This document shows, piece by piece, positions 7,268 through 34,819 of a DNA stretch of 64,000 nucleotides. The notes beneath the pieces were generated by a model. It saw only the letters and a list, made by a program, of their open reading frames with translations, was not told where the DNA came from and did not search any database. The stretch spans positions 11,650 to 75,649 of the forward strand of contig CADBDF010000004.1 in assembly GCA_902793435.1 (NCBI GenBank), in the 5' to 3' direction. Source of the stretch: an uncultured Pseudomonadota bacterium (lineage in GTDB: Bacteria > Pseudomonadota > Alphaproteobacteria > Rs-D84). Every line of letters starts with the position of its first letter. The stretch's first letter is position 1. Made by a program: the position numbers and the translations under genes.

Positions 7268-8770
7268 TTACATTCCGCAATCCAGACATTCTTCCCCTAT
7301 TTCCTGGATTTCTGCGTCACCATCGGTCACAACAGCGATTGGGACAACCTTGCCTGGTTCGGTGTAATGCGTTTCTTTGACAACGCGCACACGACGATTT
7401 TGGGCATTTGGCACACCATCAGCCGTTGGAACTTTCAAATCTTCTTCACCTGCGGAAACTGCGACAATTTGACTTGCAGGGATTCCGTATTGAATCAGCA
7501 TTTTCTGGACAGCCTCGGCTCTGCGACCACCCAATGCATAATTATAACTGTTGCTGCCAGATGTATCCGTATGACCAACCACTGAAACCTTGATGTTCTT
7601 GTTATTTTGGGTTGCGGTTGCCAATTCACGAATCAACGCATCATATTCAGGCTTTATAATGGCTTTGTTAAAGTCAAAATGAACTTCGAATATCTCTTCC
7701 ATTACATGTTGTGTTGGTTCCAATGGAATCTGTTGGACTTTAATAACAGCCTTTTCATCGTTTGGTTTCAATGCGTCCAAACGGTCATTGATGGCCTTAA
7801 TTTCTGCACGCATAGCCATCATCATATTGATAAACTCGTCACGAGTGACAACTTCTTCACCTAATGTTGGATCTTGGTTACATGGGCATGTTTCCACCGC
7901 CGGTTCATTGTCTGGAACATTTATTACGACTGGACGACCCGTCTTGCAGTCACATTTTGACCCATTACTTGAATTTACTGCAACTGTATTGCCACTATTG
8001 GAAACATGTTTATCGCCACCATAAATATTTTGATTAAATACCATTGGCGCCGATCCTACAGGCACAGTTTGCACCAAATTTGCCGGAATATTAACATTAT
8101 TTACAATCACGATACCGTCACGTGGATATGATGCCCCACCCACAGTTTTCAAAGAACGTGTATCTGGATAAAATTCTTTTTTATTAATTTCAATTGTCGC
8201 AGGTTTTGCCGCCGCGCGTTTTGCAACCTTGCAACCACCACTTTTACAATTACGCAACACGTCCATTGCCGCGATAAAACGGTCATGACATTGATGCGCA
8301 GTCTCCTCCTGGGCGGTTGATTCCGCAGACAACCAACAATCAAATTTCGCCTGTGCCTCGGCTGCAACATCTGGACGATTTTCTGTGGCATCATTTTTGA
8401 ATTCTTCAATCATGTCATTATATGCCATTTTCAACATTTCAGCAGTTGCCTCGTCATCGATTGGCCAATTTCCCACAGTTTCCGGGAACGGTGTTTCCCC
8501 TGAAAAAGCCGTCACAGCCTTTTGCGCAAACAATTCACCCATTTCCGGATAACCCGATGTCCGCGCATTATAAATTGCATAAGACCGATAATTCATCGCC
8601 AACTGATTCAAAAAAGAATCCTGATGCGGTGCCGAATAAACATCTAAACCTTCGACATAATCAACTGTTGGGGTTGATACATCCTCATAACGATTATCGG
8701 TTCCTGCGCATGCCGTCAAAGCCGACACCAAAGCCAAACCAAAAACACGTGAAAATATTTTGTTTGCCAT
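7268..8770 (-). CDS. OmpA-family peptidoglycan-binding lipoprotein
   Basis: Lipobox LTAC; alpha-type N-domain (AQAKFDCW); C-terminal OmpA_C (VHFDFNKA, GHTDTSG, YNYALGGRRAEAV, QNRRV). Confidence 0.9.
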   Translation of the reverse strand: MANKIFSRVFGLALVSALTACAGTDNRYEDVSTPTVDYVEGLDVYSAPHQDSFLNQLAMNYRSYAIYNARTSGYPEMGELFAQKAVTAFSGETPFPETVGNWPIDDEATAEMLKMAYNDMIEEFKNDATENRPDVAAEAQAKFDCWLSAESTAQEETAHQCHDRFIAAMDVLRNCKSGGCKVAKRAAAKPATIEINKKEFYPDTRSLKTVGGASYPRDGIVIVNNVNIPANLVQTVPVGSAPMVFNQNIYGGDKHVSNSGNTVAVNSSNGSKCDCKTGRPVVINVPDNEPAVETCPCNQDPTLGEEVVTRDEFINMMMAMRAEIKAINDRLDALKPNDEKAVIKVQQIPLEPTQHVMEEIFEVHFDFNKAIIKPEYDALIRELATATQNNKNIKVSVVGHTDTSGSNSYNYALGGRRAEAVQKMLIQYGIPASQIVAVSAGEEDLKVPTADGVPNAQNRRVRVVKETHYTEPGKVVPIAVVTDGDAEIQEIGEECLDCGM

Positions 8771-8896
8771 AATTCCTTCCTTTGTATTTAATCCCTTGTA
8801 TTATACTATTTTTTTGTCAGTCAGTAAAGCAGAAAAACAGACGAAAATAATTTGTTTAAAGAAATATTTTTATCAGCTTTTACCAAAATCAATAAG

Positions 8897-8977
8897 AACA
8901 GTATAGATGCGAAGATAAAAACGAGCGTAATGTACAAAACGTACATAAACAAGCCATCAACAAGCAGATGTGCCATT
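8897..8977. repeat. Structured palindromic repeat, copy 1 (degenerate)
   Basis: aacagtatagatgcg...atgtac-aaaac-gtacat...caacaagcagatgtgcc, matches copies at 23845 and 38221-38411. Confidence 0.7.
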
Positions 8978-9803
8978 ATTTATCTAAAAATTGGGTGACT
9001 GTGGGTGCAAGTGACCCCATCCCAGACAATCCACCACCACTGGTGAGCCCCCCAACCGCCTGCATAATACTGCCAGTATTGGTGGTTTGACCCGCATTAG
9101 AAATCGTTGTGGTTAAAAATGAAGCATACGCCTCGCGATTACGTTTGGAAATATTTTCAGGCGAACACTTTTCCATTTTTTCCATCATTTTACCATACAT
9201 GGCGGCCTCGTCATTGGTATAATCTACAACGGTAAAATCAATTGCACCAAAAACTTTATATATATTTGATTTATATTTTTGTTTGGACGATGCACATGTT
9301 GGCATGCCATCGGCACAATAATATCCATACGAAGCCTTGGGATAATCTTGCCAAATCATATCTTTATCCCCTGCGCCATCAAAAAGTTCAGTACATGTAT
9401 CAATACTGTTTGTGGTCGCCGTCACCTTTAAATCAGTGGCATATGTTTCGCCATTCGCAGTTTCGCATTTCCGCCCAGTTCCAGCCACACTGGAAAGCAT
9501 TTTTTCCGCAGACACCGCCCCAACCTTGGCATATTCTTTGACCATATTATTAACCCAGTTAATTTCTGTGGCCGTCGGCACACACTCTGCCGCCAATTCT
9601 TTTTGTTGCTTGGTCAAAGCCGACACATTGGACACCAATCCAATAACGCCCGGCAACAATGACCCCGATGTTATACTTTCCAAACCCGATGTTTCTTGTT
9701 TTTTAACATTTGATGCTTTTTTGACCTGAAAATCAGCCGCATTGGCAACAACACCACACATGCAGACAATAATTCCCATTAAAAAAGAAATTTTTTTTCT
9801 CAT
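8976..9803 (-). CDS. Secreted Cys-containing hypothetical protein
   Basis: Signal peptide (VANA-A); several cysteines; no family recognised. Confidence 0.7.
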   Translation of the reverse strand: MRKKISFLMGIIVCMCGVVANAADFQVKKASNVKKQETSGLESITSGSLLPGVIGLVSNVSALTKQQKELAAECVPTATEINWVNNMVKEYAKVGAVSAEKMLSSVAGTGRKCETANGETYATDLKVTATTNSIDTCTELFDGAGDKDMIWQDYPKASYGYYCADGMPTCASSKQKYKSNIYKVFGAIDFTVVDYTNDEAAMYGKMMEKMEKCSPENISKRNREAYASFLTTTISNAGQTTNTGSIMQAVGGLTSGGGLSGMGSLAPTVTQFLDK

Positions 9804-28340: not shown

Positions 28341-28976
28341 ATGGAAAAACAAGAAATAAGAACATTTGGTCGTCGTCATGGCAAAAAATTATCGCCACGA
28401 AAACAGTTATTATTGGAAACTGTTTTACCGGCTTTTTTGCCAAAAAACATCAAAAACACCGGGAATTTAATTTTGGAAATTGGTTTTGGCAATGGCGAAC
28501 ATGTTCGCGATTTGGCGATTCGCAATCCTGAATCTATTATTATTGGTGCCGAACCATTTATGAACGGGGTTGCGGCATTATTATCGGCAATAACAAACGA
28601 ATCGACCAATCAAGTTATGGACGAATATAAAAACATAAGAATTTGGCCTGACGATGTTCGCAAAATGTTTAATGAATTGGACGCAAAATTTAATGAAATA
28701 TGGGTATTACACCCTGACCCATGGCCCAAGGCCCGACACGAAAAACGCAGATTATTAAACGCTGATTTTTTGTCTGTATTGGGAACCAGACTAACAAAAA
28801 ACGGTCAAATTATTATTGGCACAGACCATTGGGAATATTTCGATTGGATTGTTGAACAAAGTAAAAAAACGGCGCTTAACGCATCGTTTCCGGCACAATC
28901 TTTAATTCATACACGATATGCAGAAAAAAACATGGCCGGAACAACCGAACCAAAATATTTGATTTTATCCAATTAA
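28341..28976 (+). CDS. trmB: tRNA (guanine-N7)-methyltransferase
   Basis: LEIGFGNGE, PDPWPKARHEKRR, TDH..Y, TRYAEK. Confidence 0.95.
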   Translation: MEKQEIRTFGRRHGKKLSPRKQLLLETVLPAFLPKNIKNTGNLILEIGFGNGEHVRDLAIRNPESIIIGAEPFMNGVAALLSAITNESTNQVMDEYKNIRIWPDDVRKMFNELDAKFNEIWVLHPDPWPKARHEKRRLLNADFLSVLGTRLTKNGQIIIGTDHWEYFDWIVEQSKKTALNASFPAQSLIHTRYAEKNMAGTTEPKYLILSN

Positions 28977-29641
28977 TACGCAACAAAGAATTTTAATTTA
29001 TCTATCAATTCTGGACGATTTATTTCTACCAACCTATAAACCTGTTCTGCTCGAACAAAACTGGTTCCTAACATGACATGTAATTCCATATTTTGTGCCG
29101 TCCAATTTTCCAACGCACTGTAAATTCTGCCAACAAAATCAGATTTATCCATATCTTCGTGCGACATAATTAGCAACACAGATGACGCGTGTAATTTATT
29201 TAAATCCGCAAACACATCGTCCCAATCCAAAGGCCATATTTCAAATATATCCAACCCGATTGATAAATCTTTGTTAAAAAACAAATCATCACGCACAGCC
29301 GACAGCGATTCAGCGAATCGTTTTAAATCATTTAATTTCACAATTAACTGTGCGCCATTTGCACCCTGTTTAAATACAGAATTTATATTAACAGCCAAAT
29401 TTGAAATATCATCACCTGCAACACAATCGAATCGCGAATATATTTTTATATTTGATTTTTCAACCCATGGCCAAATCACAGGAACCGATGTCGGCAATAC
29501 CGATAATGCAGGCACTTTCATTTCAACCATATATTCCGCCGCCCCCGCCAATTCCGCACCGTCCGGATTATCACCCATCCACAAAGACACAGATTTTGCC
29601 ACATCAACATTATTATCAAAAATTTCTTTTATATCTATCAT
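28973..29641 (-). CDS. Hypothetical protein, DeoC/aldolase-like TIM barrel (degenerate)
   Basis: ALSVLP..V..I..W...S.IKI and F..GA.GAQLIV patterns resemble DeoC; catalytic Lys/Asp not seen. Confidence 0.45.
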   Translation of the reverse strand: MIDIKEIFDNNVDVAKSVSLWMGDNPDGAELAGAAEYMVEMKVPALSVLPTSVPVIWPWVEKSNIKIYSRFDCVAGDDISNLAVNINSVFKQGANGAQLIVKLNDLKRFAESLSAVRDDLFFNKDLSIGLDIFEIWPLDWDDVFADLNKLHASSVLLIMSHEDMDKSDFVGRIYSALENWTAQNMELHVMLGTSFVRAEQVYRLVEINRPELIDKLKFFVAY

Positions 29642-29666
29642 TATGCTTTCTAGTTTATCATAAATA

Positions 29667-29675
29667 TGATATAAT
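29667..29675 (+). promoter_or_regulatory. Extended -10 promoter, back-to-back with a divergent TGATAAACT box
   Basis: TGATATAAT 8 nt before ATG 29684. Confidence 0.6.
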
Positions 29676-29683
29676 TAAAACAA

Positions 29684-30604
29684 ATGAAATTACACGAAAG
29701 ACTAAATTTTTTATTACTGGGGACACTATGGATTTTGGCCATAGTGTTGATATTGAATTTTTGGTTAAATACGGCATACCGTTTTAATATGTTTTCTGGG
29801 GCACATTGGGAATATATATCAAATATCCAGGCCCAAAACCTGCCTATATCCAGTGGTTTTTATATTGCATTTATTATTGCAATAACAATGGCTATACTGG
29901 GGTTATATTTATTATTCCGTCCAAAATTTAGAAAAATAAAATTGCCCATATCACAAAAAACTGTGACGCAACAAATCACACCACAACAACCAATTATCAA
30001 ACCCGAACAAACGGTTCAGCAACCCGCACCCCTGGAACAAAAAAACGATATTCAACCGACAAACACACAAATATCATCAAATCCAATGATGGCACGACCA
30101 CCGCGTTTGCATATTCAAATGCCACAAAAAACAGTAAATCGTCCTGTCACCGCAACCCAAAACACACAACCAGCAATAAAAAAACAAGAACCCGTTGCGC
30201 GCTATACGCATGAAATCCGGGAAATTTTTGAAAAAAATAAATTTATGGTTTTAACACCAAAACCAATCAATCGTATTCCTTTGTCATTGATTGCAATTGG
30301 TGCAAATGAAACATTATGGATTGGCGCAACCAATATATCACACGAACAAATGAGTGATATAATATTGACATTAAAAAATGTATTTAACGAAACACTGGAA
30401 GATATTGAAATAGATTTAAATGCATTTATAATAAACCCAACAGATACAGATTTCGTAGATGCAATTTTGGATTTAAAAGATATTCAAGAACTAGAATCCG
30501 CAATCCAAAATATTCCAAACGAACCTGAATCTGACGAAAACGACAGTATGGACGCTTTTGCTGGATATATTGAAACCGTTTTGACATATTTGGGAAATAA
30601 ATAA
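29684..30604 (+). CDS. Membrane protein: 2 TM, Pro/Gln linker, alpha/beta C-domain
   Basis: Two hydrophobic helices, low-complexity linker, acidic C-terminal domain; first gene of a coupled operon. Confidence 0.75.
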   Translation: MKLHERLNFLLLGTLWILAIVLILNFWLNTAYRFNMFSGAHWEYISNIQAQNLPISSGFYIAFIIAITMAILGLYLLFRPKFRKIKLPISQKTVTQQITPQQPIIKPEQTVQQPAPLEQKNDIQPTNTQISSNPMMARPPRLHIQMPQKTVNRPVTATQNTQPAIKKQEPVARYTHEIREIFEKNKFMVLTPKPINRIPLSLIAIGANETLWIGATNISHEQMSDIILTLKNVFNETLEDIEIDLNAFIINPTDTDFVDAILDLKDIQELESAIQNIPNEPESDENDSMDAFAGYIETVLTYLGNK

Positions 30605-31110
30605 TGAAAATAAGTGAAACAAATGCTATTGCACGCATATCAGAACTGGGCATGGACGATATGCCCCTGATAGAATACACCCCAAAACCCAAATTATTAC
30701 CAAACGATTGGTTTGCAAAATATCGCACATTATGTCATGAATTTATGGAATCTTTATCTAATTGTGCCACCGAAATTGCATTTATGAATTTATCACAAAA
30801 TGAATTTATGGGGTTATTAACCGGACGTGCATTACCACGAAACACATCTATTCGGTGGCGCATACCAATTACACTGGGTGGCGAAATGTCGATTGAAAAC
30901 ATGTTTTTATGTCGCACCTTCCCAAACAGCCACAGATTAGACAGATTCATAATGGAACAAACCGGCAACGAAACATTATGGTTGCCCAATCCTGAAAAAG
31001 CGGTATATGTCACAACACATACGGCAACGGGTGGCACCGGCGGTAACGCAACATCTGACCGTCTGTCCCAGGTCGCCGCACAAATCGCCAAAGATAATTC
31101 ATTGGGGTAA
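30604..31110 (+). CDS. Degenerate HNH toxin-like domain protein
   Basis: IEYT...F...L...LS......G..P...IRWRIPITLGG....NMFL....P..H......P.P...VY parallels HNH toxin tips, with VHH replaced by IRW. Confidence 0.6.
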   Translation: MKISETNAIARISELGMDDMPLIEYTPKPKLLPNDWFAKYRTLCHEFMESLSNCATEIAFMNLSQNEFMGLLTGRALPRNTSIRWRIPITLGGEMSIENMFLCRTFPNSHRLDRFIMEQTGNETLWLPNPEKAVYVTTHTATGGTGGNATSDRLSQVAAQIAKDNSLG

Positions 31111-31113
31111 AAC

Positions 31114-31548
31114 ATGAACCAAACAGAATTTTTAGACACAATAAAAAATAAAGGCGCATTGATTTGGGGACCATCAAACGCACGCGCCATTGAACACGCA
31201 AACTCTAATTTACAGCAAAAAAAATGTGCCATGTTTCCTAATTTTATGATTAGTTTATATACACAAACGGCTGGAATAAATTTAGGCTCCGGATATATAT
31301 TTGGTCCAACGGAATTACCAAATGGAAACAATTTTCCAATTCCCAGTATCACAGATATAAACTCAGAAATTCAAAACATACCTGCATTAAAAAACAAAAC
31401 ATTATTTGGTCGCAACGATTTATTTTGGTTTGCATTTGATTCTTTTGGAACATGTTATATGCTCAGTAATATAAACGGCAGCATTTTACGCAAATATGAT
31501 GACGGATATCGCGCATTATACGATTGCTTGATGGGTGGAAAAATTTAA
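31114..31548 (+). CDS. SMI1/KNR4 (SUKH, YrhA-like) immunity-type protein
   Basis: P.S...I......FP.F...LY....G....GYIFG.......SI...N...LFG..D...FAFD....Y. Confidence 0.72.
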   Translation: MNQTEFLDTIKNKGALIWGPSNARAIEHANSNLQQKKCAMFPNFMISLYTQTAGINLGSGYIFGPTELPNGNNFPIPSITDINSEIQNIPALKNKTLFGRNDLFWFAFDSFGTCYMLSNINGSILRKYDDGYRALYDCLMGGKI

Positions 31549-31758
31549 ATGAAAAAACTATCTGTATCTTTATCTGGACATCAAACCAGTATATCACTGG
31601 AACCTGAATTTATATTGGAATTACAGCGTATAGCCAAAAATCAAAACACATCGGTCGCGGCAATTATTTCCAATATAGACAAAACGCGCAGTGCAAATTC
31701 AAATTTATCATCTGCAATACGCGTTTGGATTTTAAATAATATAAAAAGAGACAATTAA
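31549..31758 (+). CDS. Ribbon-helix-helix protein (RHH_4 family)
   Basis: KKLSVSLSGHQTSISLEPEF...L..IA...NLSSAIRVWIL. Confidence 0.9.
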   Translation: MKKLSVSLSGHQTSISLEPEFILELQRIAKNQNTSVAAIISNIDKTRSANSNLSSAIRVWILNNIKRDN

Positions 31759-32441
31759 TCTTTTTGCTTACTATTTTGTTCTAACTGCATCATCAATATT
31801 TGTTGTGGCGATTTTGGCAACGCACTCAACAAAGCATCTGCGCATTGTGATTCTGTCACGAAATCATAATTTTTTTCCATCAAAGATATAATTGTATTAT
31901 GAATTTCATTATCTGAAAATTTTCTTTTTTCTGACCAATCATATTGCATTTTATATGGAACCTTAGACGATGGAGTATAAATATTGACCCCCAATTCTGT
32001 TGCTAATTTTCTGCGTGCGTCATTTGAATTAAACAAACACAATGCCGTATTACGACCATGCGCGGTTCTGCGAAATTGAATCAACGGCATACCTTTTTCA
32101 TCACGCATAGATGCCAAATCTTTATCTTTGATATCACGCACCAATTTGACAATTTTATAAACAGGTATGCGATATAATGAAACCAAACGAACCACAGGAG
32201 TCCAATGAATATCTTGCTCTGGAACTTTTTTTAAATTCACCAAATTAAACTTATTAACAAATTCATCAAAATAACCTTTATGTAAAAAATATTGACCGTC
32301 ACGAAACAAAACGTGTTTATGACCACCCCATGTATCATAAACAGATTTTAAATTTTGTACCAACGCATCACGTGATATATCAACATTCGCCCGTATTTTT
32401 TCATAATCCAACCAAACATTAGTTTTAAACATAATAATCAC
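31755..32441 (-). CDS. Hypothetical protein
   Basis: 228-aa ORF with GGGTG RBS; no family recognised. Confidence 0.6.
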   Translation of the reverse strand: MIIMFKTNVWLDYEKIRANVDISRDALVQNLKSVYDTWGGHKHVLFRDGQYFLHKGYFDEFVNKFNLVNLKKVPEQDIHWTPVVRLVSLYRIPVYKIVKLVRDIKDKDLASMRDEKGMPLIQFRRTAHGRNTALCLFNSNDARRKLATELGVNIYTPSSKVPYKMQYDWSEKRKFSDNEIHNTIISLMEKNYDFVTESQCADALLSALPKSPQQILMMQLEQNSKQKD

Positions 32442-32475: not shown

Positions 32476-34419
32476 TTAATTACGTTTATCAAGTCTATAC
32501 GCAATAAATCCGCCAAAAATTGCAATTAGAACAATTATAACGAACCACGCGTCACGCCCCAACATTCTGTATAAAGTCATATGAGAACCAGTTGCCACAC
32601 CGTCCAACACACCAATTTGTCCAATGGGTAATTGCGATATAATTTTACCGTCCGCACCAACAAACGCACTAATTCCAGAATAATTAGCCCTGATAACCGG
32701 AACACCCGATTCGATTGCCGCCCTGCGCACCATATCCAGATGTTGATATGTCCCCGGTGTTTTTCCAAACCAAGTATCATTTGTTATATTCACAATCGCA
32801 TCAACATAATCATTTTTTACAACCGCGTTTGAAAATATAATTTCATAGCAAACCGCCGGCGCAAAAACAAAACTGGTGTTTTTATCAATACGTAAATCCA
32901 TCAAACGCGCACCTTGCCCAGCCGTCAAATTTGCAGGTGTTGGAATAAATTTAATTGGGCCATATTCACCAAACGGCACCAAATGAGATTTACTGTAATA
33001 ATCTAAAATATCACCATTTTCATTTGCCAAAACCAATGAATTATATACTGACGAATCATAATCAACAACATGCGCACCAATTATCACAGGAACATTTAAT
33101 TGTTTTGCAATCGGCATAAAATCATTTGGACGCAATGCAAACGGATACGATGTTTCTGGATAAATAACAACATCAATATTGCGAACATCACCCGCCAATT
33201 TTATCAATGCATCAACACGATTTTTTGCCTGATTCAATGCGTCCGCACGCGTCATAGAAATTTTAGATTCTTGACTGGTCACTGGTTGAACGACACGAAT
33301 TCGCGTTGCACCATTACCCGTATTTGATTGCCCAATATTGTTATACCCAACAAATATTCCAACAAATAAAAACACAGAAAAAAACAGCAACAAAAACCAA
33401 TTCGCTTTGCCACCACGATTATATAATAATTGCACAGACGATGCAATCAAACCCAATATCACAAATCCTAATCCCAATGCCCCAAACAACGACATAGAAT
33501 TCGAAATAATTGCGCCACCCAAAGTAATATTTGCAATTGGATTCCATGGAAAACCAGTCAAAAACCATTCACGCAACCACAACACCGCGGTTGCCGACAA
33601 AGCAAAAACCATTGGTTTTACACTATTTTTATTGTATATACATCGTGTCAATACAAATGGAATTGTGAATATAATTGCGCCAACCAATGCCAATCCAATC
33701 AATGCCGGCCCGGTCCAAATTGCAAATCGTTTTGTTAATTCCGGAACAACATATATGGAATTTAACGACCACCAAAACATAGATACCGAATACATGGCGC
33801 CAAAAGGAACTGCACGCAGCCAAACCCGCCACCAAGCAATCTTTTCGTTATCAACACACAACAACCAATATGCCACACCAAATGACAAAATCGTTATCCA
33901 CCACAAATTAAAAGGTGCAAAACCCAACGACGCCAAACCACCCAGCGCCCCAACCAATACATATTTCCACCACTTAAACCCAGAAATATTTTCATCAGCA
34001 TACGGATTTTTAAATCCCAACTTTTTCAAAACCTTGATTTCCTTGGACTCCATAACACGCGCCTGGGCATCGGTCAAATGATCATACCCCAACAAATGAA
34101 ACATACCATGCACAACCATATGCGCCGTATGTTCAGCCACAGAAATATTAGCAGCCGCCGCCTCACGTTTTACCGTATCCAACGATATATAAATATCACC
34201 CAACAAAATATCGTCCCCCAATTCAAAAGACAAAACATTTGTTGGTTTATCCATATCACGATACATTTTATTCATCGCATGAATTTCATTATCATCAGTC
34301 AAAGTGATAGAAACCTCGGCATCATGATATTTTGCACCAACAACCGCATTTGCAATTTTTTCAAAATCTATATTATATTTTTTCCAACGAGAATCATTAT
34401 AATTCACATAAACTTTCAT
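32476..34419 (-). CDS. ybeY-lnt: YbeY-Lnt fusion (rRNA maturation RNase + apolipoprotein N-acyltransferase)
   Basis: N-terminal KPTNVLSF, LGDIYI, HMVVHGMFHLLGYDH; then GFPWN, YPET, YSKSHLVPFGEY, VCYE, TNDTWFG in one frame; GAGG RBS before 34419. Confidence 0.92.
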   Translation of the reverse strand: MKVYVNYNDSRWKKYNIDFEKIANAVVGAKYHDAEVSITLTDDNEIHAMNKMYRDMDKPTNVLSFELGDDILLGDIYISLDTVKREAAAANISVAEHTAHMVVHGMFHLLGYDHLTDAQARVMESKEIKVLKKLGFKNPYADENISGFKWWKYVLVGALGGLASLGFAPFNLWWITILSFGVAYWLLCVDNEKIAWWRVWLRAVPFGAMYSVSMFWWSLNSIYVVPELTKRFAIWTGPALIGLALVGAIIFTIPFVLTRCIYNKNSVKPMVFALSATAVLWLREWFLTGFPWNPIANITLGGAIISNSMSLFGALGLGFVILGLIASSVQLLYNRGGKANWFLLLFFSVFLFVGIFVGYNNIGQSNTGNGATRIRVVQPVTSQESKISMTRADALNQAKNRVDALIKLAGDVRNIDVVIYPETSYPFALRPNDFMPIAKQLNVPVIIGAHVVDYDSSVYNSLVLANENGDILDYYSKSHLVPFGEYGPIKFIPTPANLTAGQGARLMDLRIDKNTSFVFAPAVCYEIIFSNAVVKNDYVDAIVNITNDTWFGKTPGTYQHLDMVRRAAIESGVPVIRANYSGISAFVGADGKIISQLPIGQIGVLDGVATGSHMTLYRMLGRDAWFVIIVLIAIFGGFIAYRLDKRN

Positions 34420-34438
34420 AGTATTGCCTCTATACGCA

Positions 34439-34819
34439 TTAATTCTGGGATTTTTTATTTTTCCCCAATCCAGATTTTTTTGCAATTTTCGACCTGACAT
34501 TTGCATAATTTGGTGCAACAAATGGGTAATCATCTGGCAATCCCCATTTTGCACGATACTGTTCAGGTGTCATATTAAATCGCCGTTTAATATAACGCCG
34601 TAACATAACATGCCACGTTCCATCTTCCAGACATTGAATTCTATCTGGTTGGACCGAATCAGCAATTTGTTGGGGACTGACCACCGTTCCACGCAAAATT
34701 GCACGCGCAGAATTTACCGCATCAGCCATAGACAAATCTGGATTATTTGCCATTGCCGCCGCCGCCAGATTCGCAACAGCCAATGTAAATTCATTATTTT
34801 TCGTATTAATATTTACCAT
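34439..34819 (-). CDS. mucR: MucR/Ros family regulator
   Basis: IQCLEDG...MLRR...MTPEQYRAKWGLP.DYP.VAPNY...RS.IAK..GLG. Confidence 0.93.
   Translation of the reverse strand: MVNINTKNNEFTLAVANLAAAAMANNPDLSMADAVNSARAILRGTVVSPQQIADSVQPDRIQCLEDGTWHVMLRRYIKRRFNMTPEQYRAKWGLPDDYPFVAPNYANVRSKIAKKSGLGKNKKSQN

Follow-up and report, generated by a model that had tools for sequence, protein, structure and literature searches.

A putatively dead HNH protein and its SUKH-type partner as possible accessory parts of a type IV coupling protein in Ca. Enterousia

The roles known for toxin-immunity pairs are those of a weapon or of an addiction module. Why, then, would such a pair become a fixed and strongly conserved part of a core genome once the toxin appears to be catalytically dead? 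The question is raised by a four-gene operon (g1 to g4, Table 1) in a stretch of 64,000 nucleotides (the window) from contig CADBDF010000004.1 of the uncultured alphaproteobacterium GCA_902793435.1. Its genome, 0.9 Mb in 15 contigs, belongs to the genus Ca. Enterousia of the order Rs-D84, which is described as partner-dependent, with genomes below 1 Mb, in passages of PMC12306168. The operon encodes a membrane protein (g1), an HNH-like protein (g2), a SUKH-type protein (g3) and a ribbon-helix-helix (RHH) protein (g4). The answer proposed here, which we favor with reserve, is that the domesticated nuclease-immunity pair and g1, a presumed membrane-bound pseudo-nuclease, may serve the coupling protein of a type IV secretion system (T4SS) as accessory subunits or as a receptor.

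The four genes are tightly packed. The stop codon of g1 and the start codon of g2 share one base (TAATG), g2 and g3 are 3 nt apart, and g3 and g4 follow each other with a gap of 0 nt. This layout had been given correctly in a preliminary description of the window, as is clear from the coordinates of the open reading frames (ORFs) and from the sequence.

The central element is g2, which is to all appearances an HNH (His-Me finger) protein without catalytic activity. The protein itself matches no Pfam, NCBIfam or PADLOC family, and searches of the PDB sequences with g2 and with a g2-family profile gave nothing meaningful. An exhaustive phmmer search against 1.84 billion representatives returned 37 hits, none of them from a named family. 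Two of the hits, both long repeat proteins, were rejected as spurious, as they match the G-rich tail of g2. Within the searched range of 92-294 aa, 303 homologs of g2 were found. Those listed are mostly about 168 aa long and, where named, are called hypothetical.

The connection to the HNH nucleases is made by paralogs in other Alphaproteobacteria, found with the g2-family profile and here called HH-type. They keep the full motif VHHK.P..GGG.N...N..L....H...H, and H82, H83, N93, N97, H106 and H110 are invariant in their alignment. With hhalign, the g2 family is matched to these HH-bearing paralogs at 99.1% (E 5.4e-19, 132 columns). The HH-type alignment, in turn, matches solved HNH nucleases: Cas8f-HNH (2.9e-6), a group II intron maturase (1.1e-5) and pyocin AP41 (2.6e-5), with further matches to an Rhs toxin (5.4e-3), McrA (0.014) and colicin E2 (0.037). 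Five of nine HH-bearing paralogs score 18.5-21 bits against PF01844, the cut-off of which is 21.4 bits.

The AlphaFold (AF2) model of g2 has a pLDDT of 86. In Foldseek its top rows are the nuclease domains of pyocin AP41, colicin E9/E7 and Cas8-HNH (best E 0.16); for both the g2 and the g1 model, Foldseek gave no row at E <= 1e-3. In VIA, which is independent of Foldseek, most of the 33 chains at Z >= 2 are HNH nucleases. The best matches are Cas8-HNH (Z 5.9, rmsd 3.0, 84 aa), the C terminus of teneurin-2 (4.4), GVE2 HNH (3.8) and colicin E9 (3.7). A protein atlas, taken as a lead only, places g2 near the HNH, Tox-GHH, Ntox8 and Col-Pyo_DNase clusters. Both HNH homology and membership in the beta-beta-alpha-metal fold are found for g2, by way of the hhalign match to the paralogs and of the fold rows.

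Which catalytic residues have been replaced can be read from the column alignment with the HH-bearing relatives. The beta-beta-alpha core of g2 spans about residues 78-119 (nt 30835-30960). Here I83-R84-W85 is aligned with V-H-H, so that R84-W85 takes the site of the HH doublet, while S109 and D113 stand at the sites of the two helix histidines. In the g2 family as a whole, VHH has become IRW or IRF and the helix His have become S and D. In colicin E9, the metal is bound by the first H together with both H of the helix, whereas the second H acts as general base. Read by these roles, R84, S109 and D113 of g2 align with the metal-ligand sites H82, H106 and H110 of the HH-type, and W85 (F in most of the family) takes the general-base site, which is His in no member of the order's family. 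Consequently, both the general base and the metal site would be lost in g2. Of His, Asp, Glu and Lys, none is conserved any longer in the family's beta-beta-alpha core, and the invariant residues (P88, G92, G93, N99, F115, Q119 and G147) are structural only. The protein starts at the domain itself, with no N-terminal delivery or secretion domain, and it ends in a conserved tail (GG.GGNAT.DRLSQ, about residues 143-156). The preliminary description had taken gene 2 for an HNH protein devoid of its catalytic His, with IRW in place of VHH and no delivery domain. The hhalign match, the column alignment and the start of the protein at the domain bear it out on each point.

The next gene, g3, would encode the conserved partner of g2 and probably belongs to the SUKH superfamily, as judged at profile level. 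SUKH proteins are normally immunity proteins to such nucleases. The window's g3 matches the NCBIfam YrhA family at E 3.7e-4 and 20.4 bits, below the cut-off of 55, and has no Pfam match; a g3 profile found nothing significant among the PDB sequences. Among 24 g3 orthologs, however, eight match SMI1_KNR4 (best E 1.6e-5), four SUKH_6 and three SUKH_5. The earlier identification of gene 3 as SUKH finds support in its orthologs (8 of 24 with SMI1_KNR4), the window protein itself being below the YrhA cut-off. The succession of a g2-like and a g3-like gene is seen in the window and also at 23 loci of the order and 13 others (L028-L040); a g3-like gene stands behind tandem HH-type copies as well.

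The two proteins are predicted to form a complex. The g2+g3 model scored 0.89, versus 0.01 for the best of three controls, and the runs agreed in at least 93% of contacts with a partner pLDDT of at least 91. Of 80 solved complexes, 58 attained the same mark as g2+g3, and so did 2 of 110 mismatched pairs. The score is evidence for binding, not a demonstration of it. The predicted interface on g2 comprises residues 79-84, 88, 90-91 and 104-121, which are the former active-site strand and helix. In the model, g3 covers this former active site, as an immunity protein would be expected to do. The C-terminal tail of g2 is poorly structured and lies outside this interface.

Tandem sets of two to three intact-HH HNH paralogs, followed by one g3-like SUKH gene, were observed in larger alphaproteobacterial genomes (Table 1). 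They adjoin pheA and queA, not mobile DNA. Two proteins of about 505 aa at these loci each contain one degenerate and one intact HNH domain.

Is the pair in the window on its way out, or is it maintained? Among 41 sampled genomes of the order, g2 was found in 39, with one match each, and the two genomes without it are 70% and 84% complete. The genomes with g2 measure 0.5-1.1 Mb, and the distribution is vertical and single-copy. The order g1-g2-g3-g4 is kept in 11/11 loci of the genus, and g1-g2-g3 in 12/12 loci from the order's other families. The sporadic, variable and multi-copy spread that is typical of polymorphic toxins is not what is seen for g2, with its single match in 39 of 41 genomes and its conserved synteny. 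The pairwise ratio of nonsynonymous to synonymous substitutions (dN/dS, NG86) is 0.04-0.15 for g2, 0.05-0.14 for g3, 0.03-0.13 for g4 and 0.12-0.34 for g1, in pairs with a dS of about 0.8-2.3, which is near saturation. A decaying or mobile toxin cassette was rejected because of these low ratios and the order-wide presence.

The surroundings are those of a core locus. The neighbors at 14-46 kb of the window include recJ, a gene for a penicillin-binding protein, sufS/sufE, trxA, dksA, thrS, gltX, trmB, ybeY-lnt, rarA, ftsK and secDF, and no mobile-element genes were found in this interval. PADLOC has no family for any of g1 to g4. A defense island was rejected on this result together with the housekeeping context. 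The preliminary description had expected a domesticated rather than a decaying pair in a setting of core genes without mobile markers. The dN/dS values of g2 and g3, the order-wide presence of g2 and the housekeeping neighbors agree with the former, and the interval free of mobile-element genes with the latter. None of the contrary outcomes that it had named (no HNH or SUKH profile, sporadic relatives with intact HH, dN/dS near 1) was encountered.

A hint at the function comes from genomes outside the genus, where the same genes accompany a type IV coupling protein (T4CP). With the T4CP of the window's genome as the query, 301 sampled genomes of the class were surveyed. Outside the genus, 14 of them contain this T4CP type (E <= 1e-177, 46-54% identity). 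Directly downstream of it lie g2-like and g3-like genes in 12 of the 14, and the other two T4CPs are at contig ends. All 11 scanned ORFs upstream of g2-like genes match PF02534. A g1-like gene stands directly upstream of the T4CP in 13 of the 14 loci, sometimes as two in tandem, and the 14th locus is cut by a contig end. A hidden Markov model built from the genus g1 sequences only detects the genes upstream of the T4CPs at E 3e-12 to 1e-3. Given the g1-like gene upstream and the g2-like and g3-like genes downstream of the T4CP, the widespread arrangement in other alphaproteobacterial families is g1 - T4CP - g2 - g3. Such clusters sit among housekeeping genes: mur/fts, nusA-infB and rsmB. A search with a single T4CP protein, by comparison, gave 80 of 80 loci from the same genus and no new lineages.

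The T4CP-linked g2-like proteins of the 12 genomes cover the full profile length, including the tail GG....DR. They still have the first H and both helix H (invariant H129, H154 and H158), and the general base is gone. Among the aligned loci, disarmed g2 is found only where this T4CP type is present, and genomes without it hold only the HH-type, often in tandem (motif-level comparison made without genomes G151 and G170). The relatives form a graded series, from HH intact over general base lost to all His lost, which makes the path of domestication directly testable.

A second T4CP paralog, with 34-42% identity to that of the window's genome, occurs in G056, G074, G114, G141, G142, G224, G228 and G236, which hold the g1-T4CP-g2-g3 cluster.

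In the order Rs-D84, the T4CP is found in 41 of 41 sampled genomes. The window's genome encodes VirB3, VirB4, VirB8-like, VirB9, VirB10 and VirB11-like proteins besides the T4CP. This VirB-type T4SS is dispersed over at least four places of the 0.9-Mb genome (Table 1).

The first gene, g1, encodes a protein of the inner membrane and brings a further nuclease-like domain. Its N-terminal hairpin consists of two transmembrane helices (about residues 9-31 and 57-78), joined by a loop with the conserved motif FN(I/M)FS..HW.Y. By the positive charges that flank the helices, both ends of the protein are read as cytoplasmic. A P/Q-rich linker of about 90 residues (about 84-170), modeled with low confidence, leads to a well-modeled C-terminal alpha/beta domain (residues 171-306; pLDDT about 90, against 80.6 for the whole AF2 model). 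The preliminary description had seen the two-helix anchor with its P/Q linker, and this part stands; the NERD-like C-terminal domain had been overlooked.

It is this C-terminal domain that resembles a degenerate PD-(D/E)xK/NERD-like fold. VIA on residues 170-280 gave Upx (Z 7.4), Can2 (6.8), AF1548 (6.7), NucS (6.6), VRR_NUC (6.5) and FokI (6.1). In Foldseek, g1 has cap-snatching endonucleases, Bax1, XisH and the endonuclease domain of R2 in its top rows, at E 0.015 for the best. All domain-level matches are restriction-endonuclease-like, each of them weak singly. Pfam NERD was approached by one g1 homolog only (L058, E 1.1e-3, 19.9 bits versus a cut-off of 22.1). As read from the alignment, the window's g1 has strands SLIAI and LWIGATN and does not show the D...(D/E)xK residues. 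Its relatives keep the first D (xDF), and their second motif reads LCLxD or LGKLD. The domain appears to have a fold like that of the NERD/PD-(D/E)xK nucleases (Can2, NucS, VRR_NUC, FokI and AF1548), but it lacks their D...(D/E)xK and is anchored by the transmembrane hairpin and the long linker.

The last gene, g4, matches Pfam RHH_4 (PF13467) over residues 2-64 of 69 (E 6.7e-21, 74.5 bits). With a curated cut-off of 25 bits, the earlier naming of gene 4 as RHH_4 is secure. It stands behind g3 in 11/11 genus loci and in 10/12 loci of the order's other families.

How the operon may be expressed can be seen from its upstream region. The extended -10 promoter of the preliminary description is present as a motif, TGaTATAAT. 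A TGnTA(T/C)AAT block is conserved 8-10 nt upstream of the g1 start in 11/11 orthologous genus loci, in which the identity of the g1 protein goes down to about 30%. The element is not among the sites of a -35/-10 consensus scanner because the scanner requires a -35 element. The promoter-like sites found by this scanner in the region were not above chance (10 found, 14.7 expected). As the -10 element is only 8 nt from the g1 ATG, a leaderless or near-leaderless g1 mRNA would be implied, with transcription predicted to begin near 29682-29684. An inverted repeat, TATCAT-n4-ATGATA, overlaps the -10 region and is largely kept in the 11 genus loci, with single-base differences in some arms. It is a candidate operator, as an idea only. 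Among RNA-library contigs from gut metatranscriptomes, those of two studies span the junction of g1 and g2, and those of one study span that of g3 and g4. At the g2/g3 junction, no bridging RNA-library contig was found and several bins are uncovered, which says nothing either way. The contigs give a weak hint of operon expression, weak because DNA can occur in such libraries.

Taken together, the operon may be the remnant of a conserved cluster around the VirD4-type T4CP of a chromosomal VirB-type T4SS. The functional unit would be the g2-g3 heterodimer, with the SUKH protein over the former active site. At the inner membrane, this heterodimer and g1 would assist the T4CP, be it as receptor, as adaptor or as regulator. 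Without cutting, the pseudo-nuclease surfaces could bind a substrate, either nucleic acid or protein, or they could control the ATPase. The conserved g2 tail is a candidate docking motif, because it is poorly structured and outside the predicted g3 interface. In Rs-D84, the T4CP gene would have moved off and the three other genes merged into one translationally coupled operon. This operon would have acquired the RHH_4 gene, and g4 may autoregulate the conserved promoter. The preliminary description had thought of a domesticated, membrane-tethered regulatory or nucleic-acid-binding module. Domestication is supported by the dN/dS values and the order-wide presence. The free-standing role is less favored: since g1, g2 and g3 flank the T4CP in other families, a T4SS-linked role is preferred.

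More speculative is the wider proposal of an undescribed type IV coupling complex. Its substrate receptor would consist of two pseudo-nucleases, the dead HNH domain and the membrane-anchored PD-(D/E)xK/NERD-like domain, and a former immunity protein, possibly holding nucleic acid uncut. It would occur in these partner-dependent, sub-1-Mb gut Alphaproteobacteria and in several other uncultured families. We put it forward as a possibility, with more doubt than the accessory role as such.

Several points weigh against a role at the T4CP. In the window's genome, the T4CP gene lies on another contig (C1) than the operon (C4), and across the order the two are not adjacent: where they share a contig, they are 13-78 kb apart. 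A neighborhood in other families is no proof of function here, and the contact between g1-g3 and the T4CP is putative. TrbL/VirB6 was not found in the window's genome with PF04610. Every fold match is individually weak (best Z 5.9 for g2 and 7.4 for g1), and the g2-g3 score may partly lean on memory of solved nuclease-immunity complexes. The RNA-library contigs are no proof of transcription. Finally, g4 is tied to the cluster only in the order Rs-D84.

In an alternative reading, g2 is a non-cutting T4SS substrate or effector derived from an interbacterial DNase toxin, g3 is an immunity protein turned secretion chaperone, and g1 is unrelated or auxiliary. The g2 family is indeed rooted in HNH toxin-like proteins, as its place near Tox-GHH, Ntox8 and Col-Pyo_DNase in the atlas suggests, and tandem HH-intact paralogs stand before one SUKH gene. 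A site directly behind the T4CP gene suits an effector-immunity pair, and the poorly structured g2 tail outside the g3 interface could be a putative secretion signal. However, effectors are usually variable and lineage-specific, whereas g2 is single-copy, under strong purifying selection and one-to-one with the T4CP type across many families. Moreover, an immunity protein is of no use against a dead toxin, and still the conservation of g3 equals that of g2. We regard this alternative as unlikely.

The same logic of T4SS-linked toxin-immunity pairs, nuclease effectors included, is found in the bacteria-killing T4SS of Xanthomonas, Stenotrophomonas and Lysobacter (X-Tfe/X-Tfi). X-Tfe effectors are active and variable, and they carry a VirD4-binding C-terminal domain. 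In contrast, g2 appears to be dead, and it is conserved and single-copy.

It is less probable again that the operon has become independent of the T4SS in Rs-D84. It would then be a unit tethered to the membrane that regulates or binds nucleic acids, in line with the preliminary description, with g4 as the DNA-binding protein and g1-g3 for sensing or sequestering something. Nowhere in the order is the T4CP gene linked to the operon, translational coupling joins the RHH_4 gene to g3 in the 11 genus loci and the 10 of 12 others, and the conserved promoter block comes with an inverted repeat, all of which would suit such a unit. Yet all sampled genomes of the order have the T4CP, and the module cannot have been set free by losing it. 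In addition, g4 is missing in 2 of the 12 order loci and in all T4CP-linked clusters, as it was not found beside the clusters of other alphaproteobacterial families, and in g2 no DNA-binding residues are conserved beyond the structural ones. Finally, a toxin-immunity, toxin-antitoxin or anti-phage cassette that still works with non-canonical catalytic residues is very improbable: the nuclease-like gene followed by a SUKH gene in tight coupling, as in toxin-immunity cassettes, and the confident binding model would fit it, but there is no conserved His, Asp, Glu or Lys in the g2 core, one copy per genome is inherited vertically across the whole order, whose genomes here measure 0.5-1.1 Mb, and neither mobile genes at 14-46 kb of the window nor a PADLOC family for g1-g4 were found.

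Returning to the accessory role at the T4CP, the known systems help to place its parts. The HNH DNase toxins with SUKH/colicin-type immunity (colicin E7/E9, pyocin AP41/S2 and Tox-GHH tips) have the beta-beta-alpha fold family in common with g2. The gene order is the same, the nuclease-like gene and then the SUKH gene, and the partner is predicted on the active-site face of g2. Unlike these toxins, g2 has neither the general-base and metal-ligand His nor a delivery domain, and unlike their cassettes it is single-copy, core, vertically inherited, under purifying selection and T4CP-linked. The SUKH system was described by Zhang, Iyer and Aravind 2011 (PMC3113570), in passages of which the terms 'inactive', 'type IV' and 'alphaproteobacteria' are absent.

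A likewise domesticated HNH-toxin-like domain is found at the C terminus of teneurin, the tip of which we take to be a Tox-GHH domain. Residues 2679-2754 of mouse teneurin-2 are the second VIA row for g2 (Z 4.4, 71 aa). Teneurin, however, is a eukaryotic cell-surface protein and, unlike g2, has no SUKH partner gene.

For the T4CP side, the comparison is with the type IV coupling complex of Legionella, in which DotL is joined by DotM, DotN, IcmS, IcmW and LvgA. The two are alike in a membrane-protein gene directly upstream of the T4CP gene, in small soluble partners and in the idea of accessory receptor subunits on a T4CP. They differ in that the T4SS here is VirB-type (VirB3, 4, 8, 9, 10 and 11), not Dot/Icm, and in that the parts would be nuclease-derived. 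DotM, DotN and IcmS/W had no match in the VIA lists of g2 and g1, which does not exclude one.

The individual parts are of known kinds (HNH toxin, SUKH immunity, NERD-like fold, RHH and T4CP), and it is their combination and the domesticated state that appear to be undescribed. The 134 relatives of the g2 family and T4CP-linked orthologs are called 'hypothetical protein' where named, and none is given a name by any source. In titles and abstracts of the literature, no dead HNH-SUKH pair linked to a T4CP and no T4SS in Enterousia or Rs-D84 was found described. Secretion is not mentioned in the passages of PMC12306168 on Ca. Enterousia/Rs-D84. If the wider proposal of a new coupling complex is true, a toxin-immunity pair would have become a lasting structural component of a secretion machine. 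That the genes are strictly linked to one T4CP type in many uncultured families of Alphaproteobacteria suggests that VirB-type systems have a new set of accessory proteins at their coupling protein. To our knowledge, few accessory partners of the coupling protein are known in such systems. A universal T4SS with a dedicated accessory module would also be a lead to how Ca. Enterousia/Rs-D84 interact with their partner cells.

Table 1. Positions of the operon, its upstream elements, nearby ORFs, T4SS genes and tandem HH loci. Positions are those of the window unless a contig (C) or locus (L) is named.
Feature	Position	Strand	Remark
g1	29684-30604	+	306 aa; ORF list
g2	30604-31110	+	168 aa; ORF list
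g3	31114-31548	+	144 aa; ORF list
g4	31549-31758	+	69 aa; ORF list
Extended -10 element TGaTATAAT	29667-29675	+	8 nt 5' of g1 ATG, read from sequence
Inverted repeat TATCAT-n4-ATGATA	29656-29671	.	overlaps -10 region; candidate operator, read from sequence
222-aa gene	28973-29641	-	divergent from g1
205-aa ORF	30735-31352	-	antisense to g2 and g3
228-aa gene	31755-32441	-	converges on g4
692-aa ORF	32476-34554	-	YbeY domain fused to apolipoprotein N-acyltransferase
VirB3/VirB4	C1 ~95.5-98.2 kb		
VirB8-like/VirB9/VirB10	C3 ~90-94.8 kb		VirB10 821 aa
VirB11-like ATPase	C3 ~10.3 kb		
T4CP	C1 29765-32038		
Tandem HH locus	L045:3277-5077 and 8589-9687		
Tandem HH locus	L049:3452-5760		
Tandem HH locus	L047:3466-6246		
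Tandem HH locus	L050:2622-5221		

Some further genes around the operon deserve mention. In loci L013-L024, from the order's other families, a fast-evolving gene of 440-600 aa lies 5' of the g1-like gene. Its products are treated as lineage-specific, because they belong to no Pfam family and phmmer found no homolog of them in the window's genome. In the window, a 222-aa gene is divergent from g1 across a shared promoter region of 42 bp, and a 228-aa gene converges on g4 with an overlap of 4 nt; neither has a Pfam or NCBIfam family. The 205-aa ORF antisense to g2 and g3 is presumably spurious, given the conservation of the genes on the sense strand and the purifying selection on them. The 692-aa ORF further downstream is unusual: a YbeY endoribonuclease domain (residues 61-178) is fused to an apolipoprotein N-acyltransferase (LNT_N and CN_hydrolase).

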